A stretch of DNA of 64,000 nucleotides from NCBI GenBank assembly GCA_016933575.1, contig JAFGAR010000028.1, forward strand, positions 1 through 64,000. Reading direction: 5' to 3'. Under the pieces are notes generated by a model, which worked only from the letters and a program-made list of their open reading frames with translations, had not been told where the DNA came from and searched no databases. Position numbers and translations under genes: made by a program. The DNA comes from Candidatus Thorarchaeota archaeon. Lineage in GTDB: Archaea > Asgardarchaeota > Thorarchaeia > Thorarchaeales > Thorarchaeaceae. Shown one piece after another: positions 32,425 through 48,137 of this stretch. The first letter of the stretch is position 1, and every line of letters starts with the position of its first letter.

Positions 32425-33378
32425 GTGATTGAGTTGAGTAAGCAGAAGTATATACGTCAGTATAGATGGTCCAACGTCTTGGCAATGATGCAAGGTGGAG
32501 CAAAAGAGCTAAAAGAGTGTACTGATGATTTTAAAGGACGATTAGTTGTTATTACAGGAGCAACATCAGGAATAGGGTATGCAGCCGCAAGAGAGTATGC
32601 TTCACATGGCGCGAATCTTCTTCTCATTAATCGAAGCGAAGAAAAATCAATTGCTCTATGTGACGAGATACGTCAAGAATTTCAAGTAGAATGCGATTAT
32701 AAGATTGCAGATTTTTCGCGATTGACTGAAGTACGTAAAGTGGGAAAGGAAATTCTATACTCAGACCTAGACATCGATGTTCTTATCCATAATGCTGGAA
32801 TTTATTCAACAAAAAAGATAATCACTGAAGATGGTAATGAACTGGTCTTTCAAATAGACTATCTTGGTTCTTTCGTGTTGAACTACATGCTTAAGGACAA
32901 ATTGAAAGCACAAGGAAAAGCGCGTATCATCTTCGTAAACTCAGAAGGTCATCGCTTTGCTGTTTTTGGCATTGGTCTACATGATCCCACCTATGAAAAA
33001 CGTCGACATTCCGGTCTAGGAAGTTATGGTGTTGCGAAAGCAGCCCAACTTCTTTCAATGATAAAATTTGTTGAATATTTTGAGGGTAGCGGAGTTACTA
33101 TTAATGCCATTCATCCAGGAAATGTCAAGACTAATAGTGGTTCACAAAATGGTCGAATATATCGCTGGTATAAGAGAAACTTGATTGATCGTTCAGCGAA
33201 AGACCCACAAATATCTGCAACTGCATTGTATTATCTTGGCGTTTCAAAAGAGATTGAAGGCGTAAGTGGCAAGTTCTTCAATCTCACAAAGGAGGAAGAA
33301 CCTGCGCCTCCATCCTTGGACAGGGAGGTAGCAGAGGAGCTTTGGCATAAATCAATTGAGATGGCGGGATTAGAATGA
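32425..33378 (+). CDS. Short-chain dehydrogenase/reductase (retinol dehydrogenase-like)
   Basis: TGATSGIG, HNAG, YGVAK, HPGNVKT. Confidence 0.9.
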   Translation: MIELSKQKYIRQYRWSNVLAMMQGGAKELKECTDDFKGRLVVITGATSGIGYAAAREYASHGANLLLINRSEEKSIALCDEIRQEFQVECDYKIADFSRLTEVRKVGKEILYSDLDIDVLIHNAGIYSTKKIITEDGNELVFQIDYLGSFVLNYMLKDKLKAQGKARIIFVNSEGHRFAVFGIGLHDPTYEKRRHSGLGSYGVAKAAQLLSMIKFVEYFEGSGVTINAIHPGNVKTNSGSQNGRIYRWYKRNLIDRSAKDPQISATALYYLGVSKEIEGVSGKFFNLTKEEEPAPPSLDREVAEELWHKSIEMAGLE

Positions 33379-34970
33379 GTAAAGACAACCATAGAACAAT
33401 TATTGTCGGCGGCGGAATGTCTGGAATAACCGCTGCAGTTTACTTAGCAAGAGCGGGTCATGATGTTCTCCTACTAGAGAAAAACAAGGAATGCGGCGGA
33501 CTCCTCAATTCATTTCAACGCGAAGGATTCACCTTTGATGCAGGAGCGCGATCAATTCTTAATGCTGGAATAATCCATCCAATGCTTAGAGAACTTGATA
33601 TTGAACTTGAATTTCTTGAAAGTCCAGTATCGATAGGAATCGAGAATGATATTATCAACCTTACGCCTGAGAATGCTGTAGATGAATATCGAAAATTGCT
33701 GGAAAGACTGTATCCAGAGAGTGCAGAGGACATCAAAGTGGTAATCTCAAAAATTGAGAGCATCATGAAAGACATGCAGACGATGTATAAAATTGATAAT
33801 CCAAACTTTCGGGAACAAAAAGATGGAGCCTATCTAAAACAGCTTCTAGGTTGGCTACCTGGATTCATCAGGGTCTTAGGTCGAATGGGCAAACAGAGCG
33901 AACCCGTTGAATCATATTTAGCAAAATTGACTTCAAATCAATCCCTAATTGATATTATAGCCCAGCATTTCTTCAAGAAGACTCCAACCTCGTTTGCCTT
34001 GGGTTACTTCTACTCCTATACTGACTACATCTATCCAAGAGGAGGCACAGGTGAGCTACCAAAAGCCTTGGTGCAGAAAATCATCGAGTTTGGTGGAAAA
34101 ATACAAACTGAAACAGAAATAACTGGAGTCAATCCTTCTGAGAAAGAAGTCAGAGACAAAAATGGTAACACGTATTCGTATGATACACTCATATGGAGTG
34201 CAGATTTAAAGACACTATACAGAATATTAGAATTAAATAATTTTGAAGAAAAGGATTCTCAAGAAATCCTGGAACAAAAGGAACTTCTTCTTTCAAAAAG
34301 AGGCTGTGATTCTGTATATTCATTATTTGTAGGTGTAGATGCACCTCTAGAGGAATTCAGCTCCAAATCAAACGGACATTTCTTCTATACACCATCGAAA
34401 CAAGGTCTTGGCGAAACGCACTGGTCTGAACTTGACTCTTTGATTGAGAATTTTGAAACGAAATCAAAGGATGATATTCTTCAATGGCTGGACAAGTACT
34501 GTCAATTAACAACATACGAAATTTCAATCCCTGCATTTAGAGATCCCACATTGGCTCCTAATGGCAAGACTGGTGTAGAGATAAGCATGCTATTCGAATA
34601 CGATTTGTTGAAGAAGGTTAAAGATGCAAATTGGTATGAAGAATTCCAATCTGAGGTAGAAAACCGTATGTTGGATGTTCTTTCCAATTCCATATATCCA
34701 AGTCTGAGAGATAAAGTACTCTTTCAATCATCATCAACACCACTCAGTATTGCTAAAATTGTAGGGACTTCAGAAGGAGCGATTGTGGGTTGGTCTTATT
34801 TATCACCTGTTCCTGTTGTAGACAATCTCAGAAAAATTCCTAGCTCCGTACTGACACCTATTCCTAATGTGTACCAAACAGGACAATGGGCCTATAGCCC
34901 AGCAGGTTTGCCTACAGCAATTATCACTGGTTGGAATGCTGCTCAGAAGATAATCAAGAAGAAAAAATGA
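33375..34970 (+). CDS. Phytoene desaturase-family FAD-dependent oxidoreductase
   Basis: GGGMSG..AA.YL...G..V.LLEK...GG...SF.REGF.FDAG, YPRGG, STP......GAI.GW, GQW..P.G.P.A..TG. Confidence 0.85.
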   Translation: MSKDNHRTIIVGGGMSGITAAVYLARAGHDVLLLEKNKECGGLLNSFQREGFTFDAGARSILNAGIIHPMLRELDIELEFLESPVSIGIENDIINLTPENAVDEYRKLLERLYPESAEDIKVVISKIESIMKDMQTMYKIDNPNFREQKDGAYLKQLLGWLPGFIRVLGRMGKQSEPVESYLAKLTSNQSLIDIIAQHFFKKTPTSFALGYFYSYTDYIYPRGGTGELPKALVQKIIEFGGKIQTETEITGVNPSEKEVRDKNGNTYSYDTLIWSADLKTLYRILELNNFEEKDSQEILEQKELLLSKRGCDSVYSLFVGVDAPLEEFSSKSNGHFFYTPSKQGLGETHWSELDSLIENFETKSKDDILQWLDKYCQLTTYEISIPAFRDPTLAPNGKTGVEISMLFEYDLLKKVKDANWYEEFQSEVENRMLDVLSNSIYPSLRDKVLFQSSSTPLSIAKIVGTSEGAIVGWSYLSPVPVVDNLRKIPSSVLTPIPNVYQTGQWAYSPAGLPTAIITGWNAAQKIIKKKK

Positions 34971-34991
34971 ACTGAAAATGGAGAGATATTC

Positions 34992-35411
34992 ATGTCTGAA
35001 GTTGACAAACTAAAAAAAGGCGTTGGAAAACGTTTGATTCCTTGGGGAATCCTTAGTATCATAGTTGGACTCATAATGTATTTTGGTCTGCCAAATACAA
35101 TTCTGGGTGGTATTGGTCTTCAGGCACTGATCTGGGGATCAATTGATGTAATCATTGCATTATCCATTATCTATAAACAGAAGGAACAATCAGTCACGAA
35201 AATAGCCAAGACCGTATCAGGTAGTATAAAGGTGGATATTCTCGTTCAGATCATTGGACTTGTCATCATCGTGATATTCTTTCAAAATCCATTCTATATG
35301 GGTAACGGAATCGGAATCATCATTCAGGGATTCTTTCTCCTTCTTCTAGACAGTTCTTACCTGAAATCACTAAGGATTCTTGAAACAAAAATTGGAACTC
35401 AAGACACGTGA
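34992..35411 (+). CDS. Hypothetical 4-TM membrane protein
   Basis: WG..S, G.G.Q..IWG.ID, G.GIIIQG.FL..LD; co-oriented with SDR and desaturase. Confidence 0.7.
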   Translation: MSEVDKLKKGVGKRLIPWGILSIIVGLIMYFGLPNTILGGIGLQALIWGSIDVIIALSIIYKQKEQSVTKIAKTVSGSIKVDILVQIIGLVIIVIFFQNPFYMGNGIGIIIQGFFLLLLDSSYLKSLRILETKIGTQDT

Positions 35412-35425
35412 TTAGGAATTCAAAT

Positions 35426-35461
35426 GAAAAGAAAGAGAGAAGTCCTATATTTCACATAGGT
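35426..35461 (-). terminator. Hairpin plus pyrimidine tract (variant of inter-gene motif)
   Basis: Minus CCTAT-GTGAAAT-ATAGG-ACTTCTCTCTTTCTTTTC. Confidence 0.45.
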
Positions 35462-35472
35462 CAGCTGGTTTA

Positions 35473-35755
35473 TTATTTGCTAACCTTTTTTCGCTGAGCT
35501 GAGAGTCTTTTCATCAAGGCGATTGCATACGAAATTAGTAGCATTGCAAAGTATAACATCGTGATGATTGGGTTTGTGAAATTGGCTCCAATCAGGAAAC
35601 CGTGGACAAAAGCGAAGGTGAGTACAATATACATCAATCCGTGGACGACACGCCAGTACTTTTTCACTCTGTTTCGCAATAACCCAGCGAGTATGGCAAT
35701 ATATACCAAATAGAGTGCAGGTCTTCCAGCTAGGCTCCAGAAGGTATACCATGAC
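35473..35755 (-). pseudogene. 3' half of ferric reductase-like TM gene fused to truncated HEPN
   Basis: SWYTFWSLAGRPALY..KYWR..HG.MY.VLTFAFVHGFLIGANFTNP matches C-half of 11384-12010. Confidence 0.8.
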
Positions 35756-36060
35756 ATTCCTAAGTTTAACAAGCTCGACAAGATTACTACCGAGATTCTT
35801 GTCAGTTACACCATGGTTGGTAATGATTTCAATCGTATCTCTGTAAGTTTCAGGTGTACCCCAATGATGATGTGCTATAAGATGTGTGGCAATATCAATG
35901 ATAGATTGTGTGGCAATCTGAAAACTTCGTTCAATAGCAAGTTGCTAATCCTATTCTTTAGGAAATCTTCCTCTTCTATTGCAGCACCTGTTTTGAGAAG
36001 TTCAATCGAAGTCAGTATCTTGTCAAGCTTCATCTTTACTGATTGCTGGTCAAATGTCAA
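35750..36060 (-). pseudogene. HEPN (HepT-like) toxin pseudogene, frameshifted (~35945) and truncated within the R-x4-H motif
   Basis: IERSFQIATQSIIDIATHLIAHHHWGTPETY..VKLRNVMV aligns to 40125-40541. Confidence 0.8.
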
Positions 36061-36066
36061 AAGTTC

Positions 36067-36468
36067 TCACACTCCAATCGATTGCTTGAGGTAATTGTCG
36101 ATGTAAATATTCCAATCAGGATATCTTATCAAAACGTATTCTACATAAGTTTGCCAAACTTCCGTATCATGCGCATAAAGGACTCTTCCATAATGTAAAA
36201 CTCTAAATTGAAGGGTGAATGAAGCCATGTTCAATAATGTCACATCAATGTGGGGCTCTTCAGATGAGTCAAAAAGTGAAAGGACTTCACCGAATATAGC
36301 AGGATATTGATCTTCACTTTATGATACCCTAAAACCAATATCAATATCGCTTTGTGGATGAGTGGTTCCAGTTGCAGTAGAACCAAAAAGGACAATGAAT
36401 TCCAGATCATCACATAATACTTTTTTAATTCTAGCAACAATCCTTTTGAGCTTCCTGTCCGAACTCAT
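36067..36468 (-). pseudogene. MNT antitoxin pseudogene (in-frame TAA at 36319-36321)
   Basis: FIVLFGSTATGTTHPQSDIDIG..*..IDVTLLN..RYPDW..Y..NYLKQSIG, collinear with 40547-40957. Confidence 0.85.
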
Positions 36469-36546
36469 GCATCTCTTTCTCCCAAAGATTTGTCATTTAA
36501 ACAACATAGAATGTTAACATATAAAGTCGAAGGTAATTCAATCTTC

Positions 36547-36592
36547 AAAAGAAAAAGGGATGGAAAGAGGTGCGATTAACGCATTCTCCTTC
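36547..36592 (-). repeat. Inter-gene motif copy F
   Basis: Plus AAAAGAAAAAGGGATGGAAAGAGGTGCGATTAACGCATTCTCC. Confidence 0.7.
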
Positions 36593-36616
36593 AAATCCAT
36601 GAACATAGTTGTTCGA

Positions 36617-37000
36617 TTATCTGCGATTGTGTTCTTCAGCAGACATATCAATTGTAGAATTTATCTCAACAATTGGGGTTCCAGCTTTTTCAATTGTGCC
36701 AAACTTACCAGATTGAAGTCTTATATTTCCCTTGAAGAGACCTACATATCCATTAGTTAGAGTGTAGGTTTCGCCTTCTTTCAGAGTATCAATAGTTTCA
36801 TTCCAGAATGGCATTTGAATTGTACCTGTAGAATCGCCAACTCTAGCATCCAAGACACGGTGTTTTTGACTGTCACTACGGGATTCGACTGTTCTTTCTT
36901 CACCAGTGCTCATGACCTTGAAGGTTATGTTTACACTTTTCATTCCGGGCTTCAGCTCGGCTATTGTAGCCTCGATGGCTTCGATCTTAAAATCTGTCAT
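36617..37000 (-). CDS. ssb: SSB OB-fold paralogue 3 (no Gly tail)
   Basis: Collinear with 29957-30340. Confidence 0.85.
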   Translation of the reverse strand: MTDFKIEAIEATIAELKPGMKSVNITFKVMSTGEERTVESRSDSQKHRVLDARVGDSTGTIQMPFWNETIDTLKEGETYTLTNGYVGLFKGNIRLQSGKFGTIEKAGTPIVEINSTIDMSAEEHNRR

Positions 37001-37160
37001 AATGTATCACTCGCTCTTGCGAATTCAGGTCATTGAAAACTAGGGTAACTTCATGTGGAAGTACAAGAAGGTCGTTAATCCTCGATAAAACCAGTGTTAA
37101 AAGTTTGCATAGTTATTATGCCTGTACTACCGAGCTGCAGAAGTTTGCTTATAGTGTTAT
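37001..37160 (-). promoter_or_regulatory. Conserved ssb promoter/leader, copy 3
   Basis: Shared blocks; minus-strand TATAAG at ~37147-37152. Confidence 0.7.
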
Positions 37161-37174
37161 GTATCTTGCAGTAG

Positions 37175-37198
37175 GAAAAGAAAGAGGAATGGAAGGAG
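37175..37198 (-). repeat. Inter-gene motif half-copy E
   Basis: AAAAGAAAGAGGAATGGAAGGAG, 23 nt identical to 40077-40099. Confidence 0.75.
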
Positions 37199-37296
37199 AA
37201 AGGAATCAAATCCCACTTGTAAAACTTCTATTATTGAAAACTAAAAACGCCGATTAATTAAAATAAGTAAACAGGTATAGAAAAAGGAGGAGGAGT

Positions 37297-39477
37297 GTGA
37301 TTTTGAAACAGCAAAATACTGTACTCAAGCTATTACTTGTATGCCTATTTCTCAGCTTTTTGTGGTCAAATATTCCAAGTTCAATTCAATTTGGTATATC
37401 GAGTCACATTAACAATCATGAAGATGACGTAAATGAATTCATAGGTTTTGATGGTGCTCTAATCTCAGCTGAAACTGAAGAAATCAAGATATCAAATCCT
37501 ATTTGGCTTAGGACATATGGTCCAAATTGGGCTACCAATAACATCGAAGATATTATCGAATGCGCTGATAGTGGATTTTGTATGTTAGGAACGCTAGGCA
37601 ATCCAAACGATGTAGGTTATTTTCCAGATGCAATTTTGTTGAAAACAGATTCGAATGGAAATCAGCTCTGGAATCGAACATATGGACGAGATGATATGGC
37701 CTACGAGTCGGTTCACAACGTTATCGAATGCTCAAATGGGGATTTCGCTTTTGTGGGATCACAGTATGTGTTGGGTACAGACGAATTTCACAGTGGATGG
37801 TTGGTTCGTGTTAATTCAAGCGGTTTTTTGACTTATAATATTACATATCCAGCTGCGCGCGAGTTAGTAGGAATTTCTGAACTTTCAGATGGAAACTTCT
37901 TCATATGTGGGATAACACCGGGAAGAGATGTTTTCATAATGAGAACAGATGAGAACGGGACCATTAAATGGAGCCTTCCATGGGAGCTATTTCTTGATGA
38001 TGAAGTCACAGATATGATTGAATACAGTCCCGGTGAGTTCATTATAGCAGGATATTCATATGATTCCAGTATGATGGTATGGATACCATTTCTATTCAAG
38101 ATCGACCAAGATTCTATGTTTTCTTGGATTAAATTCTATACACTCCTCGGAAGAGTGTATTGTAACTCAATTCTAAAGCTAGATTCAGGTGGAATCCTGA
38201 TGACAGGAATGGCAGTAACTAGCTCTATCGATTTATGGTTTTGCGAAATTGATGAGAATGGTAATTTCATCCGCGAGGCACGACTGCCTAATGAAATTAA
38301 TTATCCACCTAATGATATCATTCAATTAGAAGAAGGCGGTTTTGCAGTTCTTACTAGTTCTAATAGCATTAATCTTGTTAATGCGCAGTATGAACCAATC
38401 GGTAATATTCGATTCGATTCTATTACAGGTAATTCATTCATTCAGTCTGAAAATAAAGAGTTTGTAATTGGAGGTTCAATGAGAATCGAAAATAACTACA
38501 CTCTGACTATAATCAGAGAACCTTTCCTCTGGTGGAATCATTCTGTTATCAACATCCAAGCAGAATATTTGCAGTCGATTTCCCGTGACTTCAATGCTAC
38601 ATGCAGTCAGGGTATTGATAAGTGGACAGTGAATGCGACTGAGTTCTTTGATATCGATTCAAATGGAGTTCTTGGAAATAATTCAATTTTGAATGTTGGA
38701 ACATATCCTATCAAGATAATTGTGAATGATACTTTAGAAAACACTCTAATACAAGAATTTCTAGTAACAGTAGAAGACACGACTTCACCTGAGTGGGTGC
38801 AAGCTCCAGAAGACCAAATTTTAGAACTTGGTACAGATTTAAACTACTCTCTCTATGCTTTTGATCCATCAGGTATAGGAAGTTGGTCTATCAATGCATC
38901 AGGTCTATTTAGCATTAGTTCTGAGGGAAAAATTAACAATGTTAAGCCATTAGAAATTGGAACCTACGGATTAATGGTTACTGTTGAAGATATCTATGGA
39001 AACGATGTTAACGCTGAATTCACGCTTACAGTTACTGATTCAACTGCTCCGATATGGCTCATCTCTCCAAGCAATATTATAAAGAATGAGGATGAATCTA
39101 TACAGTTTTATTTTGTTGCGAGTGACCTTTCTGGGATAGATGCATGGATTTGTAATGACACTACTAATTTCCAAATTACTGATGAGTCATCGCATGATGC
39201 AAGTTCATGTCTATTTACAAATGCGACCATATTGAATGCTGGGTCCTATGGTCTCAACCTAACTGTAACTGATTTATGGGGTAATAAGATCTCATCAATT
39301 TTCAGAGTTACAATAATTGAGATTCCAGAAATATCTGTATCTACAACGACTACTTCTACATCAACCACATCACAGACATCGGATGAATTTCTTCAACCAG
39401 TTGTACTTCTTGCAGCTGGTTCTGGTTGGATTGCTACAATCTTTGTAATCATCATCATGATGAAACGACGAACCTGA
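37297..39477 (+). CDS. Secreted surface protein: beta-propeller-like repeats, Ig/cadherin-like repeats, C-terminal TM
   Basis: LLKTD.NGN.LW.RTYG repeats, VTVEDTT.P.W repeats, Thr/Ser linker, TM, KRRT. Confidence 0.8.
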   Translation: MILKQQNTVLKLLLVCLFLSFLWSNIPSSIQFGISSHINNHEDDVNEFIGFDGALISAETEEIKISNPIWLRTYGPNWATNNIEDIIECADSGFCMLGTLGNPNDVGYFPDAILLKTDSNGNQLWNRTYGRDDMAYESVHNVIECSNGDFAFVGSQYVLGTDEFHSGWLVRVNSSGFLTYNITYPAARELVGISELSDGNFFICGITPGRDVFIMRTDENGTIKWSLPWELFLDDEVTDMIEYSPGEFIIAGYSYDSSMMVWIPFLFKIDQDSMFSWIKFYTLLGRVYCNSILKLDSGGILMTGMAVTSSIDLWFCEIDENGNFIREARLPNEINYPPNDIIQLEEGGFAVLTSSNSINLVNAQYEPIGNIRFDSITGNSFIQSENKEFVIGGSMRIENNYTLTIIREPFLWWNHSVINIQAEYLQSISRDFNATCSQGIDKWTVNATEFFDIDSNGVLGNNSILNVGTYPIKIIVNDTLENTLIQEFLVTVEDTTSPEWVQAPEDQILELGTDLNYSLYAFDPSGIGSWSINASGLFSISSEGKINNVKPLEIGTYGLMVTVEDIYGNDVNAEFTLTVTDSTAPIWLISPSNIIKNEDESIQFYFVASDLSGIDAWICNDTTNFQITDESSHDASSCLFTNATILNAGSYGLNLTVTDLWGNKISSIFRVTIIEIPEISVSTTTTSTSTTSQTSDEFLQPVVLLAAGSGWIATIFVIIIMMKRRT

Positions 39478-39505
39478 AGATGAAATGAAAATTAGATAAA
39501 AGCAA

Positions 39506-39550
39506 GAGAAGAAAGGGGGATGGAAGGAGTGTGACAATTGCACTCCTTTG
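39506..39550 (-). repeat. Inter-gene motif copy D
   Basis: Plus GAGAAGAAAGGGGGATGGAAGGAGTGTGACAATTGCACTCCTTT; hairpin AAGGAGTG..CACTCCTT. Confidence 0.75.
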
Positions 39551-39555
39551 AAGTA

Positions 39556-39990
39556 TCAAAAAGTCTGTGTAGAGTAAGGACCTCTATACTCCATAAAAAA
39601 GACAATGCCTGCCAAGATTGCCACGACTCCAGCTATGATTGCTGGAGAAGTTGCTATGACTCCTAATGATCCCTCAAGTTGCCCTGCGAACATGAATGCT
39701 ACGAGTATTGTAATGATTCCAAAACACACGCCAAAACAAGGAGTTCCCTGGATTCGTTGGCCTGTGTCTTGTCGAATTTCTACATCACCATAGGAACCTA
39801 CTGTTCTGAAGACTGCCATCATACTCCCACTACGAGCAAACAATGCTCCGATGATCATTACAAAAGCAAAGACTCCGGAAGCCATAGCAGCTATTCCATC
39901 TCCAAATCCCACAATGCTAATTATGAGTTGGATAGTGCAGAGGAAGAATGCAACCACAAAGAGCAATGCACTTTTCATTGAACCAGCCAT
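39556..39990 (-). CDS. Hypothetical 4-TM membrane protein
   Basis: Four hydrophobic helices; RBS GGTGG. Confidence 0.7.
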   Translation of the reverse strand: MAGSMKSALLFVVAFFLCTIQLIISIVGFGDGIAAMASGVFAFVMIIGALFARSGSMMAVFRTVGSYGDVEIRQDTGQRIQGTPCFGVCFGIITILVAFMFAGQLEGSLGVIATSPAIIAGVVAILAGIVFFMEYRGPYSTQTF

Positions 39991-40076
39991 TCAAAAGACC
40001 ACCAATCGTTTTGTACTAAAAAAGAAAAGCTTCCACTCTAATGAATATATTCCTACAAATATATCCCATATAATCT

Positions 40077-40120
40077 AAAAGAAAGAGGAATGGAAGGAGT
40101 GCGACAGGCTCACCTGAGCA
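40077..40120 (-). repeat. Inter-gene motif copy C
   Basis: Plus AAAAGAAAGAGGAATGGAAGGAGTGCGACAGGCTCACCTGAGCA. Confidence 0.75.
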
Positions 40121-40124
40121 GATT

Positions 40125-40541
40125 TCAGATGAACTTCAGAATTGCATCAGCAAACAATTTTGCATCAATGATAATTGCTATTGCACTTTGATATACTATG
40201 GTGGGGTCTACGGCTATATATAGATGAATAAGTATGTTCCTCAGTTTAACAAAATCAATCAATCGGTCTGCGAGGAGAGAATCAATAATCTTGTGATTGG
40301 CAATTATCTTTACAGCATCACTATATGATTTTGGAGACCCCCAATGATTATGTGCTACTAGATGAGTACAGATATCGATAATTGCTTGAGCGATAATCTG
40401 AAGATTCCTCTCTATTGCACCTTGGAGTAGCTCATCTTTCAAATATTGCTCTTGAGTCATAGTTTCAATGTGTTTGATACGAGTGACTCGTTCGAGAATG
40501 ATATCTAATCGTGCTTTCACAACTAAGGGATCTACAGCCAT
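40125..40541 (-). CDS. hepT: HEPN RNase toxin (DUF86/HepT-like, type VII TA)
   Basis: AIERNLQII.QA.IDI..H, intact RNILIHLY (R-x4-H-x-Y); start set at MAVDP. Confidence 0.85.
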   Translation of the reverse strand: MAVDPLVVKARLDIILERVTRIKHIETMTQEQYLKDELLQGAIERNLQIIAQAIIDICTHLVAHNHWGSPKSYSDAVKIIANHKIIDSLLADRLIDFVKLRNILIHLYIAVDPTIVYQSAIAIIIDAKLFADAILKFI

Positions 40542-40546
40542 TGAAA

Positions 40547-40957
40547 TCACGCCCCTAGAGATTGTTTCAAGTAGTTCTGTATGTAGTACTCCCAATCTGG
40601 ATACCTCACAAGAACGTATTCTTGAAAACAGGGCCAAACTTTGTCATTCTTCGTGTATAGAAGTTTACCATCACGAACCACTCTGTACTGAAGTGTGAGA
40701 TCTGCAAGATTAAGAAGAGTAACGTCAATCTTCGGAGAATTCTCCTTATCTACGTAATCAAAGAGGGAGAGCAGATCACCAAAGATTGTCTGCAATTCCT
40801 TCTTCGGATTGCTTACTTGAACGCCAATATCAATATCACTCTGTGGATGGGTATTTCCTGTAGACATAGAACCAAAGAGAACTATGAAGTCAACTTGTTC
40901 ATCAAGTTCATTTCTTATCTGTGTGACGATATCATCTAATAGCTCGTCTTGATTCAA
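40547..40957 (-). CDS. mntA: Minimal nucleotidyltransferase antitoxin (MNT)
   Basis: LFGS.STG..HPQSDIDIG, IDVTLLN; directly upstream of HEPN. Confidence 0.85.
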   Translation of the reverse strand: MNQDELLDDIVTQIRNELDEQVDFIVLFGSMSTGNTHPQSDIDIGVQVSNPKKELQTIFGDLLSLFDYVDKENSPKIDVTLLNLADLTLQYRVVRDGKLLYTKNDKVWPCFQEYVLVRYPDWEYYIQNYLKQSLGA

Positions 40958-41039
40958 AGAGTCACGTTCCTTAGCATTTCATATACAGTAATTGAAATAT
41001 TCTCGCTGCATATAAACTCGAAGGTAATTTGCTTGCTGA

Positions 41040-41083
41040 GAAAAGAAAAGGGAGGGAAGGAGAGTGACAAGCACACCCGAGCA
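41040..41083 (-). repeat. Inter-gene motif copy B
   Basis: Plus AAAAGAAAAGGGAGGGAAGGAGAGTGACAAGCACACCCGAGCA. Confidence 0.75.
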
Positions 41084-41089
41084 ATGTTG

Positions 41090-41659
41090 TCAGACCCGGT
41101 CTATCAATTTCTTTGACTCAGAATCTTTCAGAAATTGCTCAAGTTTATCGAGAATACCTAGCATTTCACATGTGGAGCGTATATACTCAAAATCGAAACT
41201 TTCTGAATTTCTATTTAAAATGCCAAGAGCATCTCTAAGATCTTGCTCTCCTTGAAATAGGATTTTATTAACATAAGTGTCTTCAATAGAACCAATCCTA
41301 ATAGATGTGCCAAATAGATTGACATCGATAGCTCTTTCAAGTGTCATCTTATCAAAAGCTGAATTTACACCTTGTATGTCAAGTCTAAGTAACGTATCCT
41401 TGAAGAAAATAGTACTATGAGATTTCTCTGCGAAAGCTGCTCTGATATCGGTTGCAGAGGATGAAAACCCTCTTGAATTCAGAAATTGTGTGAATGTTGA
41501 AATTTGTTCATCTTCTATTTGCAATATAATGTCAATATCTACGGTAGTTCGAGGGACACCATGGTACATTACTGCTACTCCACCAACGATAACATACTCT
41601 ATCTTATTCTTATTGAGAAATTCACATACTAATTTGAGAATCTCTGGAAATTCTTCCAT
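41090..41659 (-). CDS. Nucleotidyltransferase (AbiEii/DUF6036-like), putative TA component
   Basis: YVIVGGVAV.YHG.PR.T.DID, ED...K....QD..D. Confidence 0.75.
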   Translation of the reverse strand: MEEFPEILKLVCEFLNKNKIEYVIVGGVAVMYHGVPRTTVDIDIILQIEDEQISTFTQFLNSRGFSSSATDIRAAFAEKSHSTIFFKDTLLRLDIQGVNSAFDKMTLERAIDVNLFGTSIRIGSIEDTYVNKILFQGEQDLRDALGILNRNSESFDFEYIRSTCEMLGILDKLEQFLKDSESKKLIDRV

Positions 41660-41812
41660 CTATCTATCACCTGCTATTCGTAGAGCTAACGCAGACAATT
41701 TCAGGCCCATAATTAGTGTTTCAAGACCGGTATATTTTCTAGCTTCGATTGCTGTTCTTATCTGATCGAGGTCTCTCCTGTGCTTCACTTGATCTGCAAT
41801 CGAGCTAGCCAT
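41660..41812 (-). CDS. 50-aa protein abutting the nucleotidyltransferase gene (putative TA partner); missed by ORF track
   Basis: MASSIADQVKHRRDLDQIRTAIEARKYTGLETLIMGLKLSALALRIAGDR*; TAG directly precedes the next ATG. Confidence 0.65.
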   Translation of the reverse strand: MASSIADQVKHRRDLDQIRTAIEARKYTGLETLIMGLKLSALALRIAGDR

Positions 41813-41870
41813 ATCATTCCCACACACCACTAGTAACTACTCTACTCATATATTCTACTATTCATAATTT

Positions 41871-41909
41871 GAAAAGAAAAGGGAGAGAAGGAGTGCGACC
41901 AGCGCACCC
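41871..41909 (-). terminator. vhuU terminator / inter-gene motif copy A
   Basis: Minus GTGCG-CTGGT-CGCAC-TCCTTCTCTCCCTTTTCTTTTC. Confidence 0.7.
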
Positions 41910-41910
41910 T

Positions 41911-41965
41911 TGCGGGGTGTGTCAAGCCCGGCTCAGTTCTTTACGCCGGACCTTCATCCGCCGCC
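41911..41965 (-). promoter_or_regulatory. Eukaryote-type SECIS element overlapping vhuU stop codon
   Basis: RNA GGCGGCGG-AUGA-AGGUCCGGC-GUAAAGAACUGA-GCCGGGCUU-GA-CACACCCCGC: AUGA/GA core, 9-bp helix II, AAA 11 nt after core. Confidence 0.85.
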
Positions 41966-42106
41966 AGTCACGAGCTCCTTCCGGACTATCTCGCGGCCAT
42001 CCTCATCGACAACGACAAGGTGTGCGCCGCATGATAGTCAGCAGTCATAGCACCGAACCACCATTTCCAGGAGGTTCAGTAACCCTTCAGGGATTTCTTC
42101 TGACAT
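41954..42106 (-). CDS. vhuU: Selenoprotein VhuU, split C-terminal Ni-binding peptide of group 3c [NiFeSe] hydrogenase (Sec23 at TGA 42038-42040); missed by ORF track
   Basis: MSEEIPEGLLNLLEMVVRCYDCULSCGAHLVVVDEDGREIVRKELVTGGG*; supplies the L2 motif missing from upstream mvhA; SECIS follows. Confidence 0.92.
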
Positions 42107-42130
42107 TGTAGTTCACGTTTCCTTTTTGTT

Positions 42131-42138
42131 CTTTATAA
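42131..42138 (-). promoter_or_regulatory. TATA box of internal vhuU promoter
   Basis: Minus TTATAAAG ending 24 nt before the vhuU ATG. Confidence 0.6.
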
Positions 42139-42158
42139 CTCTGAGGTATGGTTGTTTT

Positions 42159-43475
42159 CTATGTCTTGACCATAGGGTCGGGGAGTTTCAGGCTCTCATG
42201 GGCCTTGTCCTCGAAGATCTGCTTCGCTGCTACCATCAGGCTCTTCTCAATACCAGCGATGTTATTATTTGTCGCCACAATGAGATTTGCCTTCACTAGC
42301 ATTCCCTTATCATCGCTGACGTAGTTGTGCAAGAGAGTCCCTCGTGGAGCCTCTACAACGCCAACGCCTTCGCCAGCCTTGGTTTCGACATCAGCAAGTT
42401 TTACATCGGTGCTTACAATTTCTGGATCTTCAAGAAGAGTCTTGATCCACTCTGCAGCCTGTACCATCTCGACAACCCTAGCATAATGATAAGCAAACAC
42501 ATGATGAGATGGACGACCAATCAGATCACGCATTTCTTTTAGTGCGTCATTTGCAAGTGGAGTAGCCATCTTATCTACTACATTGCATCGAGCAAGAGTG
42601 TTGGTTCTCCAGATACCCTCAGGATATCCTGCGGGTTTGTAGTAGATGTGAGTTGCATAGCTATGCTTCGGGACATGTTCTCCATAATACTCCGTGTAGT
42701 CCTTTGGCTCGAAATCAGCGACAATCTTTCCATCAGGGTCCATAACGCGTATCTTGCCATCATAGATGTCGAGAGCACCTTTGTTATGTAGTCCAATGTA
42801 GTAAGTAGGTGTTACTCCAACTTTTGTTATTACATCAAGATATGCATTAACGACAGTCTTCGCAAGATCCACTGTCTTGTTGATATTCTCCATCAACTCA
42901 GGTACACGACCAAGCCAGTGGTCACGATCTTCCTCGGTCATGGGAGTGAGCTGCCCACCGGGAATTGCTGTGGTTGGATGGATTGCCTTTGCACCGACAG
43001 TCTTGATAATCTCTTGACCAAACTCCATGAGTTTGATAGCCTGCACGGCAACATCTGGAAGATGTTTCAGGACCGCAGCCACATTCCTGACTGCAGGATT
43101 GGCAAATGGGCCAAACACAAAGTCAGGAGCAGCAAGAGCATAGAAGTGGATAGCATGACTTGAGAGCTGCTTTGCCTCAATCATGAGTCTTCTTATCTTT
43201 ACTGCTGCTGGTGGAGGAGTAATATCCCAAGCAGCTTCAACAGCCTTTACTGAGGCAAGATGGTGAGGAATTGGACAGATTCCACAGATTCTCGGAGCGA
43301 TTCGAATAGCCTCCTCCATTGGGCGGCCCTCCAGGAACTTCTCAAAGAATCGAGTAGAGTTTACATTGAATTGTACATCCTTGACCTTTCCATCCTTTCC
43401 TAGTTTCAGCGTGAGTGAACCATGTCCTTCAAGCCTTGTCACTGGGTCGATTCTAATTGTCTTCTCGTCAGTCAT
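42159..43475 (-). CDS. mvhA: F420-non-reducing hydrogenase large subunit lacking the L2 motif (VhuA type)
   Basis: PVTRLEGH, RICGICPIPHH, EAPRGTL.H.Y, N.IVAT..N; no DPCxxC. Confidence 0.95.
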   Translation of the reverse strand: MTDEKTIRIDPVTRLEGHGSLTLKLGKDGKVKDVQFNVNSTRFFEKFLEGRPMEEAIRIAPRICGICPIPHHLASVKAVEAAWDITPPPAAVKIRRLMIEAKQLSSHAIHFYALAAPDFVFGPFANPAVRNVAAVLKHLPDVAVQAIKLMEFGQEIIKTVGAKAIHPTTAIPGGQLTPMTEEDRDHWLGRVPELMENINKTVDLAKTVVNAYLDVITKVGVTPTYYIGLHNKGALDIYDGKIRVMDPDGKIVADFEPKDYTEYYGEHVPKHSYATHIYYKPAGYPEGIWRTNTLARCNVVDKMATPLANDALKEMRDLIGRPSHHVFAYHYARVVEMVQAAEWIKTLLEDPEIVSTDVKLADVETKAGEGVGVVEAPRGTLLHNYVSDDKGMLVKANLIVATNNNIAGIEKSLMVAAKQIFEDKAHESLKLPDPMVKT

Positions 43476-44395
43476 TTCTTCTTGACCTCCTCACGCTTGA
43501 TTCTAATGGAACCGAGGTGGCTAGTTGCATATGTGAACCTGTTGAAGAGACCTAAGGGATCTTTCACTTGTTCTTTAATCTCTTCAGGAGGAATCGGAGC
43601 ATAGGTACCTAACATAGACATAGCATTCGCTCCGAAATCTTGCATAATCGGCGGTGGAGGACCAAAGCATCCACGACAGGTCGCGCCTTTGTTCACACAT
43701 TGACCCTCACAGAGACCCCAGGTAGCTGAACCAAGACAGATGTAACCCTGTTCGAGCAGACACCGGTCCTTGTCAGCGATACCTTGGTATGGCCTGAGTA
43801 TCTTGTCAATGGGTGTGTCCTTCTTCTCTCGCGCACAGTAATGACAGACAGTATGCGGCTCGAGCTCGATTGGCTCGCCTTTTAACAGAGCTGTCACAGC
43901 TGTGAGTATGAGCTTGGATGTCGGGGGACAACCAGGGAGAAAGATCTCAAAGTCGACATAGTCAGTATTGGGTTTGACAACTGGAGCAATTGCAGGTAAG
44001 TTCTCTGATGGAACTTCACCACCTGACACGGTCTTGTTTTCTCGGAACTTGACATCAAGACATTCTTCAATATCTGAGAAGTTGGCTAATCCTGGTATTC
44101 CACCGAAGCATGAACAAGAACCAAATGCAATAAGGGTCTGACACTTCTCACGCATGACCTTGAGCAGATGGATATCCTCCTCTGTCCTAGCCATGCCTTC
44201 GTAGAGACCCACTGCTATGGACTTGTCCGGGTAATTCTCTAGGTCGTGAAGCTTGTAGTCAACAACGCACTGCCAGTACTTGATATCAAGTTGTGGCAGA
44301 ACGGTTGCCAGATTCATGTGAATATCAACAAGGCTCTGGAAACAGCCCCAACAAGAACTACCCTGACCCATTGCTATTGAAACAGGATCTGCCAG
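43472..44395 (-). CDS. mvhG: Hydrogenase small subunit MvhG/VhuG; probable CTG start at 44395
   Basis: CWGC, FGSCSCFGGIPGL, LPGCPP, VC..C.R, CLL.QG.IC.G, C..C....CRGCFG. Confidence 0.92.
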   Translation of the reverse strand: MADPVSIAMGQGSSCWGCFQSLVDIHMNLATVLPQLDIKYWQCVVDYKLHDLENYPDKSIAVGLYEGMARTEEDIHLLKVMREKCQTLIAFGSCSCFGGIPGLANFSDIEECLDVKFRENKTVSGGEVPSENLPAIAPVVKPNTDYVDFEIFLPGCPPTSKLILTAVTALLKGEPIELEPHTVCHYCAREKKDTPIDKILRPYQGIADKDRCLLEQGYICLGSATWGLCEGQCVNKGATCRGCFGPPPPIMQDFGANAMSMLGTYAPIPPEEIKEQVKDPLGLFNRFTYATSHLGSIRIKREEVKKK

Positions 44396-44398: not shown

Positions 44399-44635
44399 TT
44401 AGACCTCCTTCAGTACATAGGTCAGTTCTTCGCCCTCTTCGCTCGCAACCTCAACAACTCCCCAGCGGAGCATACCCATGAGATTCCAGACCACGAGACT
44501 CTTGTCGAATCCAGTGCCCTCTGCAATCTTAGATACCGTTGAGGGACCAGCCTTCAAGATGTCTTCAATTGCCTTGCGTTGCTTTCGGACGTCTCCACGC
44601 TTCTGACTGAAGAAGGTTGTAAACATCTTACTCAT
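44399..44635 (-). CDS. Small winged-helix protein within the hdr-mvh operon
   Basis: I..ILK.GP.TVSKIAE.TG......WNL..M...G.V; ATGA overlap with mvhD stop. Confidence 0.7.
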   Translation of the reverse strand: MSKMFTTFFSQKRGDVRKQRKAIEDILKAGPSTVSKIAEGTGFDKSLVVWNLMGMLRWGVVEVASEEGEELTYVLKEV

Positions 44636-45078
44636 TTCCATTCACTCCTTATTGGACCTAGTTTTCTTACTTGTTCTGTGATTGTCCTTACGCCATCAGC
44701 GAAGATTTGTGCCTCAGAGGCTGAAGCCCATTGTAGGCGCACCCTTCGAGGGTCAACGCCTGCTTGCTCAATCGCTGTCTCCATTAATGCCCATCGCGCG
44801 CGAGCCTTGAGGTTTCCGGAAGTATAATGACAGTCTCCGGGATGACATCCTGACACAAGAACGCCGTCAGCGCCCATGTCAAGAGCAGCGAGGACAAACT
44901 CAGGGGTGAGTCGTCCGGTGCAATTCACTCGCAGGATTCTCGCGTTTGGTGGGTACTGTATTCGACTTGTACCAGCCAAGTCCGCCCCGGCATAACTGCA
45001 CCAATTACAGCAGTAAGCTACGATACGGGGCTCCCACTCTTCGTTAGTCTTGGTAGTCTCGGTCATTGCAGCTGTCAT
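44632..45078 (-). CDS. mvhD: MvhD 2Fe-2S subunit
   Basis: CCNWCSYAGAD, RVNCTG, GCHPGDCHY. Confidence 0.95.
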   Translation of the reverse strand: MTAAMTETTKTNEEWEPRIVAYCCNWCSYAGADLAGTSRIQYPPNARILRVNCTGRLTPEFVLAALDMGADGVLVSGCHPGDCHYTSGNLKARARWALMETAIEQAGVDPRRVRLQWASASEAQIFADGVRTITEQVRKLGPIRSEWK

Positions 45079-46832
45079 ACTGGACCACCTCCATCAGACT
45101 GGGGTGCAGGGCATAGATATGCCTCGACCATGGATAGAATCTGATCGTCTGTACTGTGATACATGATTATTGCACTGCTCGGGCATGCAGCAGCACAGGT
45201 CCCACAGCCCTTACATTTGGCTTCCGTGACAAAGGCTATGGGTGGATCCTGTTCCTCATCCATGGCAATTGCACCATAGGGACACGCAGTGACACAGGTG
45301 TGACAAGACGAACAGAGTTCAGGTATCACATGAGAGACCGTTGACTCAATCTCCACTTCACCTCGTGCCATCAGACCAACAGCCTTTGCAGCAGCGCCAC
45401 TGGCATCAATGACCGCTTCAGACGCATTCTTTGCAGCTTGAGCGGCGCCAGCAATCATCACACCAGCGGTGTGTGTTGTCAACGGAGCAAGTTTGATGTG
45501 CTCAGGATTGAAGAATCCATCACCACTCCTAGTGAGACTGAACATCTTGGCGGTCTCGGCAATATCCTCAGGAGGAATCATAGCTGATGCCAAGACGAGA
45601 AGATCTGGATGGAACTCGAGTTCTGTTGCACCCAAGACATCGAACCATCTGATTCGTATGTCTCCATCTTTTGAAACCTCAACATTGGGATGTGCATCTG
45701 TTGGGAATTTACTATAGATGACATGCTTCTGCCTAGCAAGGCGTTGGAACTCCTCATGGCCCTTTCCATAGGTTCTGATGTCCTGATAGAGAATGAGAGC
45801 TTCATCAACTCGGTCACGAAGGTCTGCTGCAGCTTTTGCTGTGGCAGAACAACAGTGGCGAGAACAATGCTCATGTCCTATCTTTCCAGGTTCTCGGGAA
45901 CCAACGCAACCAATGAAGACAATCTTCTTCACAGGCGAACCATCACTGGGTTTCTTCAACATCTCAGAGGGAGCCATCTCCTGGAGTTCGGCAAGAGTGA
46001 TGATATTCGGAGAGTTCTCGTAGTTATAGTACCCCACAGGTTTGAATGCCTCAAAACCAGTGGCGACTATAACTGTACCAATATCATGCTTGTATTCTTT
46101 TCCTGAGGCCAAGTTTTTGATTGTCACTTCGAAATTGCCAATATATCCATCGAACTCGGATACCTTGCATCCAGTGTAAATCTTGATACGTTTGTGTTTG
46201 CGTACTGCATCTATTAGTGGACCAATGACTTGACCACCTGATTCATCTGAGGGGAAGAGATGTGTCCACTTGGCAACATTTCCACCCAGCTGGGTGTCTT
46301 TCTCTATGAGGACTACCTCGAAACCACGTTCTGCAATATCCAGAGATGCGCGAAGTCCAGCGATACCTCCACCAACGACCATGGTCCGTGGAATGACTTT
46401 CACCGACTTGATTGGTAGACTCTCCAACTTCGCAGCACGAGCCACAGACATCCGAACAAGGTCCTTTGCCTTTTCAGTAGCCTTCACAGGTTCGCGAGTA
46501 TGACACCAACTCACATGTTCTCGCAGGTTCACCTGGTCGAACAGGTATCTGTTGACATTAGCCTCCTCGACTACTCGTCGGAAGGTAGGTTCATGCATAC
46601 GAGGAGAACAACTAGCAACAACGACTCTGTTGAGATTGAACTCCTTGATCTTCTCTTTGATGAGGGTCTGTCCTGCATCAGAACACATGAACATCTCGTC
46701 TGTGGAAAAGACTACATGTGGTAAGCTCTTTGCCATCTTTGCTACTGCTACCACATCAACTGCACCAGCAATATTGTGTCCACAGTGGCAGACAAATACG
46801 CCGATGCGTGGTTCTTCTTTTGTATCTGACAT
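45075..46832 (-). CDS. hdrA: HdrA variant with N-terminal domain, FAD domain and C-terminal ferredoxin, lacking the inserted ferredoxin
   Basis: RIGVFVCHCG.NIAG, ASCSPRMHEPTF, GGGIAG, CVGSR..CSRHCC, CSSCHTCVTACP, CKGCGTCAAACP. Confidence 0.9.
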   Translation of the reverse strand: MSDTKEEPRIGVFVCHCGHNIAGAVDVVAVAKMAKSLPHVVFSTDEMFMCSDAGQTLIKEKIKEFNLNRVVVASCSPRMHEPTFRRVVEEANVNRYLFDQVNLREHVSWCHTREPVKATEKAKDLVRMSVARAAKLESLPIKSVKVIPRTMVVGGGIAGLRASLDIAERGFEVVLIEKDTQLGGNVAKWTHLFPSDESGGQVIGPLIDAVRKHKRIKIYTGCKVSEFDGYIGNFEVTIKNLASGKEYKHDIGTVIVATGFEAFKPVGYYNYENSPNIITLAELQEMAPSEMLKKPSDGSPVKKIVFIGCVGSREPGKIGHEHCSRHCCSATAKAAADLRDRVDEALILYQDIRTYGKGHEEFQRLARQKHVIYSKFPTDAHPNVEVSKDGDIRIRWFDVLGATELEFHPDLLVLASAMIPPEDIAETAKMFSLTRSGDGFFNPEHIKLAPLTTHTAGVMIAGAAQAAKNASEAVIDASGAAAKAVGLMARGEVEIESTVSHVIPELCSSCHTCVTACPYGAIAMDEEQDPPIAFVTEAKCKGCGTCAAACPSSAIIMYHSTDDQILSMVEAYLCPAPQSDGGGPV

Positions 46833-46835: not shown

Positions 46836-48137
46836 CTAAGATTCTCCTTTGCTAAGGACAATGGTAGCCTTCATTGCAGCCGCACTCCCTGCACTTACAG
46901 AATCAGGAATGTCTTTGGGACCATCTGCACAACCACACACGAATACACCGGGTGTCTTTGTCACAGTAGGACCAAAGAATGAGTGGTCTATCTTGATGTA
47001 ACCATCGTCAGTCTGTTCGATTCCCATCTTTGTAGCCATGGTGTCCATTCCTTGAGATGGAATCACACCAGGACTGATTACAATAAGATCGTGTTCGATT
47101 AGACGGACTTTTGTACTTTCAGTATCCTCGACCTTGATTACGAGGTTACCAGTATTCTTGCCCTCCATCACTTCAGCAACACGACCTCTGATGAACTTCA
47201 CGCCAAATCGTCTCTTGGCCATTTCATAAAATTCTTCGAAGCCTTTACCAAATGCACGAATGTCTGCATAATAGACCCAGACATCAGATTTTGGATCATG
47301 TTCGAGTGCCATGACAGCATTCTTGATCGAGTACATACAACATACTCGACTACAATATGGAACTCCTTTTTGGACATCACGAGCGCCAACACATTGTATG
47401 AATCCAATGCTCTTTGGTTTCTTGCCATCACTCAGTCGTACAAGGTGACCATGAGTAGGGCCAGCAGCATTGATTAGCCGCTCGAACTCCATTGCATGGA
47501 TCACATTCTGATAATGACCATATCCTAATCGTGGATATTGACTCACGTCAAAGAGTTCGAATCCTGTAGCAACTATAATCGCACCAACATGGATATTGAT
47601 TGTCTTATCTTTCATATCCATATCGATAGCCTTGCGTTCACATACCTTTACACATCTTCCACAGTCAATACAGTTCTCCTTATCGACCGTGAAAACATTA
47701 GGAGTAGCCTGTGGAAAACCCACGTAGATCGCCTTTCTGAAACCGATATTCATGTCAAACTCATTGGGAACTTCGACTGGGCATTCTGCTGCACAATCAC
47801 CGCACCCAGAACAGAGGTCTTCTCGGACATATCGAGCCTTTCTTCTTATGCGAACATGAAAATCACCAGCAACGCCAGTAACGCTACCAACCTCCGAATA
47901 GGTCAGAAGCTCTATGTGCGGGTGATGCGAGACCTCACTAAGTTTTGGCGTCAGTATACAAGCACTGCAATCCAGTGTTGGAAAGGTCTTATCTATCTGA
48001 GCCATCCGGCCTCCGATTGAAGGGGTTCTTTCTACTAGATATACTTTGAATCCCTGGTTAGCAATATCTAAGGCGGCCTGCATTCCTGCAACTCCTCCGC
48101 CAATGACCAATGCTGCATTGGGCTTCTTTTCTGTCAT
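46836..48137 (-). CDS. hdrA: HdrA variant with FAD domain and inserted ferredoxin, lacking N-terminal and C-terminal ferredoxin domains
   Basis: GGGVAG, DKTFPTLDCSACIL, CSGCGDCAAECP, CVGARD..CSRVCCMY, GPKDIPDSV. Confidence 0.9.
   Translation of the reverse strand: MTEKKPNAALVIGGGVAGMQAALDIANQGFKVYLVERTPSIGGRMAQIDKTFPTLDCSACILTPKLSEVSHHPHIELLTYSEVGSVTGVAGDFHVRIRRKARYVREDLCSGCGDCAAECPVEVPNEFDMNIGFRKAIYVGFPQATPNVFTVDKENCIDCGRCVKVCERKAIDMDMKDKTINIHVGAIIVATGFELFDVSQYPRLGYGHYQNVIHAMEFERLINAAGPTHGHLVRLSDGKKPKSIGFIQCVGARDVQKGVPYCSRVCCMYSIKNAVMALEHDPKSDVWVYYADIRAFGKGFEEFYEMAKRRFGVKFIRGRVAEVMEGKNTGNLVIKVEDTESTKVRLIEHDLIVISPGVIPSQGMDTMATKMGIEQTDDGYIKIDHSFFGPTVTKTPGVFVCGCADGPKDIPDSVSAGSAAAMKATIVLSKGES

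Follow-up and report, generated by a model that had tools for sequence, protein, structure and literature searches.

How can a single short messenger RNA use the codon UGA first to insert selenocysteine (Sec) and then to stop, when the stop appears to be part of the signal that would recode the first UGA? The question is raised by a locus on the minus strand of contig JAFGAR010000028.1 of a Candidatus Thorarchaeota archaeon (GenBank assembly GCA_016933575.1), of which positions 1 to 64,000 were analyzed; this whole stretch of 64,000 nucleotides (nt) is called the window. The locus carries vhuA (mvhA), which encodes the large subunit of a group 3c [NiFe(Se)] hydrogenase, followed by the unannotated gene vhuU. 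Our reading, to which we assign a probability of roughly 90%, is that vhuU encodes the detached C-terminus of a group 3c [NiFeSe] large subunit, that its codon UGA-23 is read as Sec, the terminal nickel ligand, and that a kink-turn selenocysteine insertion sequence (SECIS) of the Asgard type begins at the end of the open reading frame (ORF). The gene family, the element and the overlap of the stop with the core of the element are already known from published work on Asgard archaea (Mariotti et al., 2016, PMC4989117; Huang et al., 2024, PMC11227280). The locus is therefore a rediscovery in one more metagenome-assembled genome (MAG). The parts of the gene pair are the following.

42159 to 43475, minus strand: vhuA/mvhA, large subunit of the group 3c [NiFe(Se)] hydrogenase, 438 amino acids (translation, Pfam NiFeSe_Hases, PDB alignments).
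42107 to 42158, minus strand: spacer between vhuA and vhuU, 52 nt (direct sequence reading).
41954 to 42106, minus strand: vhuU, 50 sense codons and a UGA stop, with the motif ..RCYDC-U-LSCGAH and a 21-residue tail past the His (translation with TGA as U).
42038 to 42040, minus strand: Sec codon UGA, codon 23, at the first Cys of DPCxxCxxH (translation, PDB alignment, orthologues).
41954 to 41956, minus strand: terminating UGA, whose U is the third bulge nucleotide (L3) and whose GA is the 5' half of the tandem G.A/A.G core (sequence, orthologues).

VhuA contains the N-terminal nickel motif RICGICPIPHH and ends in ...LKLPDPMVKT without DPCxxCxxH, the motif whose absence a first-pass annotation, made from the letters alone, had noticed. 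Compared with solved structures, it aligns to residues 4-411 of the 473-residue MvhA chain 5odc_F and to residues 4-417 of the 418-residue split VhuA chain 9sfi_g (E 1e-130). Its closest relatives (85-90% identity) come from MAGs labelled Candidatus Thorarchaeota. From the vhuA stop TAG (42161-42159) to the vhuU ATG at 42106, the gap is exactly 52 nt, and the 50-codon ORF with TGA at the nickel-ligand position (42040-42038) lies precisely where the first-pass annotation had placed it. From this ATG the frame runs MSEEIPEGLLNLLEMVVRCYDC-TGA-LSCGAHLVVVDEDGREIVRKELVTGGG-TGA, so that the product reads MSEEIPEGLLNLLEMVVRCYDC-U-LSCGAH-LVVVDEDGREIVRKELVTGGG-stop; the distance between the two UGAs, first put at about 80 nt, measures 84 nt. 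The gene was missed by gene callers because of its in-frame UGA.

The protein can be placed by alignment on both sides of this codon. With TGA translated as Cys, residues 4-31 of VhuU align to the C-terminal ..EMVIRAYDPCLSCATH.. of several MvhA chains in the PDB, including residues 425-453 of 5odc_F and 423-450 of 9sw2_F, and the TGA falls on the first Cys of ..RAYDPCLSCATH.. in these alignments. Residues 5-30 align to residues 2-27 of the 27-residue VhuU chain 9sfi_M; the 9sfi/9t1s entry holds a separate 27-residue chain, named 'F420 non-reducing hydrogenase subunit', beside the 418-residue chain. The proposed kinship with the split VhuA/VhuU of Methanococcales thus agrees with the solved chains. 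The split point and the position of Sec are shared with those proteins, whereas the archaeal SECIS of the methanogens, with its GAA_A bulge (known from the literature), and their D-P-C/U in place of D-C-U set them apart. By homology to the solved complexes, VhuU would assemble with VhuA and ligate nickel through selenium. As a separate observation, the nickel-binding motif R-C-Y-D-C-U-L-S-C (42020-42055, minus strand) carries Cys at two positions that are normally Ala and Pro, as in the RAYDPC of solved MvhA chains; all 94 vhuU orthologues retain D-C-U, and those of the Thorarchaeota type retain R-C-Y.

Were the first UGA a true stop, vhuU would be a decayed remnant, and the large subunit would be either a pseudogene or active without C-terminal ligands. 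Standard gene calling does end at the TGA. The genome also has a second vhuA/mvhA paralogue (C57:234506-235813; 70% identical and likewise without DPCxxCxxH) with no vhuU downstream in the assembly, where unrelated sequence lies directly past its stop, and truncated 3' remnants of vhuU occur on two other contigs, C93 and C184. The vhuU expected for the second paralogue may be the C93 remnant, or the assembly may be broken there. Against decay stands the behavior of the orthologues. A six-frame search finds vhuU in 247 of 301 genomes of the phylum, with a single in-frame TGA in nearly all of the 150 matches listed and none in 2. Across 94 orthologous loci drawn from two collections and spanning several Asgard classes, the Sec codon is TGA in 94/94, never TGC or TGT, and the 27 codons past it are conserved in frame. 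An exchange of UGA for Cys codons among orthologues, which the first-pass annotation had proposed to look for together with helix covariation, is therefore absent (the covariation is described below). The distance between the UGAs is 84 nt in 82 of the 94 loci, 96 nt in 11 and 81 nt in 1. A remnant would also leave unexplained the alignment to solved MvhA/VhuU chains on both sides of the TGA.

The genome also retains a complete Sec machinery. In this Thorarchaeota-type MAG (3.47 Mb, 215 contigs, 85.5% complete), all components that were searched for are found: tRNA-Sec (61 bits against Rfam RF01852; called tRNA-SeC with anticodon TCA (UCA) by ARAGORN), SepSecS (444 bits), a PSTK-like gene, an EFSec/SelB-type factor and, on contig C64, SelD (403 bits). 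The genes for EFSec, SepSecS, tRNA-Sec and the PSTK-like protein form one 4.3-kb cluster (C57:220550-224791); this cluster lies about 10 kb from the second mvhD-mvhA set. Given the unvarying TGA and the retained machinery, we regard a true stop at UGA-23 as so improbable that it deserves almost no weight.

The signal that would recode UGA-23 is sought at the other UGA, where the following RNA features are recognized.

41957 to 41959, minus strand: last sense codon GGA, whose first G pairs with the C past the 3' GA and whose A is the A of AUGA (pair counts).
41945 to 41953, minus strand: 5' arm of the SECIS upper helix, AGGUCCGGC (RNAfold, RNAalifold, pair counts).
41933 to 41944, minus strand: apical loop GUAAAGAACUGA, 12 nt, with AAA at loop positions 3-5 (RNAfold; matches the Thorarchaeia frhA loop 'G[U/G]AAA').
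41924 to 41932, minus strand: 3' arm of the SECIS upper helix, GCCGGGCUU (RNAfold, RNAalifold, pair counts).
41921 to 41923, minus strand: 3' core GA followed by an invariant C (GAC 66/69, AAC 3/69).
41905 to 41919, minus strand: hairpin 2, CACCC-CGCAA-GGGUG, directly 3' of the core (RNAfold, RNAalifold).
41962 to 41971, minus strand: 5' arm of lower helix P1, GUGACUGGCG, within codons V-T-G-G (pairs with 41895-41904).
41895 to 41904, minus strand: 3' arm of P1, CGCUGGUCGC (RNAfold, RNAalifold, pair counts).
41975 to 41982, minus strand: 5' arm of outer helix P0, GGAAGGAG, within codons R-K-E (pairs with 41886-41893).
41886 to 41893, minus strand: 3' arm of P0, CUCCUUCU (RNAfold, pair counts).
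41871 to 41885, minus strand: pyrimidine/U-rich tract CUCCCUUUUCUUUUC (direct sequence reading).

Read 5' to 3', the core consists of AUGA (41957-41954), AGGUCCGGC (41953-41945), the loop GUAAAGAACUGA (41944-41933), GCCGGGCUU (41932-41924) and GA (41923-41922). The hairpin first described by eye, a terminal UGA within AUGA followed by a 9-bp helix and GA, is also what RNAfold predicts, and the adenines placed 11 nt from the core correspond to the AAA at loop positions 3-5 above the helix. RNAfold embeds the 9-bp hairpin in a larger fold (-49.4 kcal/mol, z = -2.7), in which two further helices link the last vhuU codons to the 3' untranslated region (3'UTR) and a second small hairpin lies 3' of the GA. 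The GAA_A bulge of the methanogen-type archaeal SECIS is absent from this predicted fold, which has an uninterrupted 9-bp helix instead. The sequence, structure and context features of an Asgard type I element (lokiSECIS) are all present: AUGA (NNGAN) 5' of the stem and GA or AA 3' of it, a stem of 7-15 bp, a loop of 8-20 nt with unpaired adenines on its 5' side, and a position at the 3' end of a gene whose in-frame UGA aligns to Cys or Sec of homologues, in a genome with Sec machinery. The apical loop also contains a UGA (41933-41935, minus strand) in the vhuU frame, seven codons past the stop, which is not conserved in orthologues; read-through of the vhuU stop would append U-R-S-G-V-K-N only.

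The two UGAs thus appear to have different meanings in one mRNA, with the second built into the SECIS, as had been suggested from the single sequence; the orthologues support this. The stop is TGA in 93 of the 94 loci, the remaining Loki-type locus having TAG one codon ahead of GAUGA. Together with the base before it, the stop reads ATGA in 88/94, TTGA in 3 (MAGs labelled Freyarchaeia or Jordarchaeia), CTGA in 1 and GTGA in 1, so that in 88 loci the stop lies within the AUGA core. In an alignment of 69 distinct sequences covering -48 to +100 around the stop, to which the counts below refer, RNAalifold returns a consensus of three helices. When the explicit five-helix structure is scored, 87.9% of cells are paired, compared with 38-48% after displacement of the 3' partners by 1-3 columns, and cells with changes on both sides number 222, compared with 30-73 in the slid controls; 0 of 500 shuffles reach the observed pairing values. 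Compensatory changes occur at all 9 pairs of the upper helix, so this part of the first-pass expectation holds. The base directly after AUGA and its partner form a non-standard pair in 43/69, as expected beside tandem G.A pairs. The 3' core is GAC in 66/69 and AAC in 3/69, the AAC rows including two of the three Loki-type loci, and two adenines of the apical loop are invariant in the 59-69 sequences compared.

The lower part of the element reaches into the coding sequence. All 10 pairs of P1 show changes on both sides, and in P0 87.5% of cells are paired, with two-sided changes in 5 of its 8 pairs. For instance, a second subfamily, with the tail ..LVLGGG, keeps the 10-bp P1 with other sequences (GUGCUGGGCGG / CCGCCCGCAC), and one genome combines two Gly-to-Ser codon changes with corresponding changes in the 3' arm. 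Since the LVLGGG subfamily retains the helix with different sequences, P1 is real and not an artefact of its near-palindromic 3' arm. A local hairpin GUGCG-CUGGU-CGCAC was considered as the only fold of that arm and was rejected, as the 3' arm of the LVLGGG subfamily is unable to pair with itself; one loop position of the hairpin also covaries with a codon third base, which speaks against it as the sole fold. Hairpin 2 has the consensus ACCC-CGCAA-GGGU, with 95% of cells paired and a closing pair that is AU, GC or CG. The last sense codon is GNA (GGA 54, GAA 6, GCA 2, GTA 1): its amino acid varies while bases 1 and 3 are fixed, so that an RNA constraint acts on the coding sequence. The first of these bases forms a G:C pair flanking the bulge that is invariant in 69/69, and the bulge itself consists of three bases, N-A-U, between this G and the GA. 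The element thus appears to fold as a conserved three-helix junction with its lower helices in the last codons.

A kink-turn consists of a Watson-Crick pair, a three-base bulge ending in A-U as in box C (RUGA), and G.A and A.G pairs, and a k-junction is defined by a third helix that branches off the non-bulged strand immediately past the first pair of the C-helix. The SECIS core fits this layout by its sequence pattern and its invariant G:C pair. The likeness to k-turns and k-junctions, and to the box C/D RUGAUGA...CUGA bound by L7Ae, would extend to the G:C pair, the 3-nt bulge ending in A-U, the tandem G.A/A.G pairs and the third helix; the 3' strand here is often CUGA, a resemblance at the level of sequence patterns. 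The element resembles the eukaryotic SECIS (Rfam RF00031) in its AUGA...GA non-Watson-Crick core, in having unpaired adenines roughly 11 nt along the helix, in its 3' position and in possessing a lower helix. Unlike the eukaryotic element, it has a shorter upper helix, overlaps coding sequence, carries a second hairpin on the 3' strand and has no known SBP2 to read it.

Could the hairpin serve only as a terminator or as an element of mRNA stability, with UGA-23 read by a near-cognate tRNA (Cys or Trp) or through a local ambiguity of the code? A U-rich tract does follow the hairpins, and the distal 40 nt of the element recur behind other genes in an array downstream. Oligo-U termination signals are used in archaea, and by analogy the tract at 41871-41885 is likely such a signal. 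A terminator, however, has no need of the invariant AUGA...GAC core, of the loop adenines or of a G-N-A last codon; the downstream copies lack the 5' half of the element; and tRNA-Sec and EFSec are present. This explanation is therefore very improbable.

The specificity of the element leads to the same reading. At E<1e-3, a covariance model of the element core (R1), trained on vhuU only and used to score 105-150 first-look candidates per genome, matches 3 places in the 3.47-Mb genome; across 61 genomes there are 11 matches. All of them fall at the 3' end of vhuU or of a vhuU remnant. Because of the conservation of the locus, the covariation and the specificity of R1, chance, a sequencing error at the TGA and a pseudogene are excluded for practical purposes. 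The scan shows no SECIS beside genes other than vhuU, although, with a vhuU-trained model, other Sec genes (e.g., Prx-like ones) may have been missed. The MvhD and HdrA paralogues of the genome are all Cys forms with no in-frame stops, and SelD has no in-frame stop in its matched part. VhuU is thus the only selenoprotein that could be demonstrated in this genome.

How, then, might the two UGAs be told apart? From 5' to 3', the proposed element consists of the G of the last sense codon, the N-A-U bulge, sheared G.A/A.G pairs, the 9-bp helix and the A-rich loop, and the UGA contributed by bulge and core would double as the stop codon. With a ribosome on UGA-23, the first base of the element (in P0) would lie 58 nt downstream, and the whole structure would stand outside the ribosome, free to fold. 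The folded kink-turn may then be bound by an L7Ae-type protein, or directly by EFSec, for delivery of Sec-tRNA-Sec. Translation of the last nine codons would open P0 and P1. By the time of the second UGA, the upper helix would have its 5' arm inside the mRNA channel and the signal would be destroyed; a release factor would terminate at this UGA in the A site because the ribosome itself has unfolded the SECIS. The 21-residue tail past the His would also serve as a spacer and as half of the RNA structure. In [NiFe] large subunits, the C-terminal tail is removed on maturation. The same distance argument was made by Mariotti et al. (2016, PMC4989117).

Several points weigh against this account. 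Among archaea, Sec has been demonstrated in methanogens only (Peiter and Rother, 2022), and Asgard archaea have no known SBP2 (Mariotti et al., 2016, PMC4989117). Termination by unfolding is a physical argument rather than a measurement. The apical loop has 12 nt here, compared with the 11 nt reported for Loki. The eukaryotic SECIS model of Rfam gives no match at E<=10 (cmscan of 41600-42300, both strands), the sole return being a chance mir-200; the first description of the SECIS as 'eukaryote-type' therefore stands for the resemblance of motifs and not for a match to the model. The lack of an Rfam match agrees with the published failure of standard SECIS tools on Asgard genes (Mariotti et al., 2016, PMC4989117).

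A close published counterpart is VhuU.1 of Loki (Lokiarchaeota), in which the AUGA motif doubles as stop codon (Mariotti et al., 2016, PMC4989117). The lokiSECIS consists of AUGA, a 9-bp stem, an 11-nt A-rich loop and GA (AA in VhuU). Both genes encode a VhuU of about 50 residues with one Sec, and in both the SECIS overlaps the end of the ORF and AUGA supplies the UGA stop; they differ in the core (GA here, AA there) and in the loop (12 nt with GUAAA here, 11 nt with AAAAA there). The main text of Huang et al. (2024, PMC11227280) reports 1439 Asgard selenoprotein genes, in which UGA stops often overlap AUGA, and gives for the Thorarchaeia frhA family the loop G[U/G]AAA and the lower stem [U/C]GG_C[C/U][A/G]; a 2026 review repeats this description. 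As far as that text describes it, the type I eSECIS-like element of Thorarchaeia frhA/mvhA/vhuU agrees with the present one in clade, gene family, G[U/G]AAA loop and lower-stem signature, the last being P1 here. Hairpin 2, the invariant G:C pair by the bulge and the P0 helix find no mention in that main text (figures and supplements aside), where 'k-junction' occurs solely within a cited title; no priority is claimed. The three-helix architecture that overlaps coding sequence, together with a downstream cassette array carrying copies of the vhuU 3'UTR, may be counted as additions of this analysis that are worth a further look.

In the array (29875-41909, minus strand), the final 40-65 nt of the vhuU 3'UTR are repeated, always in one orientation, as six to eight copies that decay with distance (41040-41078, 40077-40115, 39507-39545, 37176-37214, 36549-36569 and 31583-31621, with a weak one at 29875). 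Their consensus is GGGUGYG..GUCRCA-CUCCUUCC-U-rich. Gene units lie between them, namely a DUF6036 nucleotidyltransferase, an MNT/HepT toxin-antitoxin pair, unknown ORFs, SSB-like proteins and helix-turn-helix regulators. The copy at 41040-41100 extends into the 3' arm of the SECIS upper helix and is closer to the vhuU 3'UTR of other genomes than to that of its own. Among 14 relatives, in which at most 12 kb was examined, extra copies occur in 9 (2 to 5 in total, including that of vhuU itself), and in two only the vhuU copy is present. The CUCCUUCC... motif was also considered as a genome-wide terminator and rejected, with 14 matches in 3.47 Mb, 6 of them in this array. The simplest reading is that cassettes have been inserted repeatedly at the 3' end of vhuU, each insertion regenerating the 3' part of the SECIS, as the pattern of copies suggests. 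Integron-like cassette clusters have been reported as enriched in Asgard MAGs.

These copies allow another explanation for the strong conservation of the element's 3' half: besides acting as RNA, it would be used by gene cassettes as an attachment (recombination) site in the DNA. The decaying copies in one orientation bound cassettes in the window and in 9/14 relatives, and some distal copies begin inside the 3' arm of the upper helix. No recombinase or integrase was seen in the window between 26 and 42 kb, and the 5' arms, which lie in coding sequence, covary with the 3' arms, a signature at the level of RNA. An attachment site would be compatible with a SECIS role and would account for extra constraint but not for the element itself; this explanation is unlikely, with a small share of probability. 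Tentatively, and with less than even odds, the two roles may be combined: the SECIS would be a three-way k-junction with two lower helices from the last nine codons, the tail R-K-E-L-V-T-G-G-G would be fixed by the needs of the RNA, and the same DNA would anchor the cassette array, with every insertion restoring the 3' half of the SECIS while an older copy stays behind downstream.

Further sequences related to the vhuU 3' end were observed. An orphan fragment on a 2-kb contig (C93:1613-1698, L129:1501-1586) holds the last vhuU codons (..DEEGREIARKELVLGGG, then stop), the SECIS and hairpin 2 behind an in-frame TAA, and another (C184:18740-18800, L131:1489-1549; ..TSSE, then stop) lies 30 nt past the cysS stop; neither has the 5' part of vhuU. 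A motif GAATAGTAGAATATAT (41848-41863, minus strand) lies about 10 nt past the U-rich tract, and at least five other genomes (L021, L031, L034, L037 and L042) have it in the corresponding position; this motif may represent a promoter or mark the edge of a first cassette common to these genomes.

Upstream, vhuA belongs to an hdr-mvh gene cluster, in which the following genes precede it.

46836 to 48137, minus strand: HdrA-like gene 1.
45075 to 46832, minus strand: HdrA-like gene 2.
44632 to 45078, minus strand: mvhD (Pfam FlpD).
44399 to 44641, minus strand: 80-residue ORF between mvhD and mvhG, without a Pfam match.
43472 to 44371, minus strand: mvhG.

The 80-residue ORF (..AIEDILKAGPSTVSKIAEGTGFDKSLVVWNLMGMLRWG..) resembles by eye a small winged-helix protein. 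Contigs of a public sediment metatranscriptome covered just a part of vhuA (42531-43500), from a relative of about 92% identity, and a public DNA run containing the stretch yielded only a diverged contig. As vhuU and its SECIS were left uncovered, these reads have no bearing on the TGA or on expression.

For the organism, the finding means that the Hdr-Mvh hydrogenase of this MAG is to be annotated as complete and not as truncated. For the family, the locus provides a clean and strongly conserved case of an mRNA in which a single codon would have two meanings, Sec at its first occurrence and stop at its second, where it forms part of the recoding signal. It may thus serve as a test object for how distance and ribosome-driven unfolding set the meaning of UGA, and for what reads a kink-turn in organisms without SBP2, a question that bears on the origin of the eukaryotic Sec system. 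If the tentative link to the cassette array is true, a recoding signal would double as an attachment site, as the ends of tRNA genes do.

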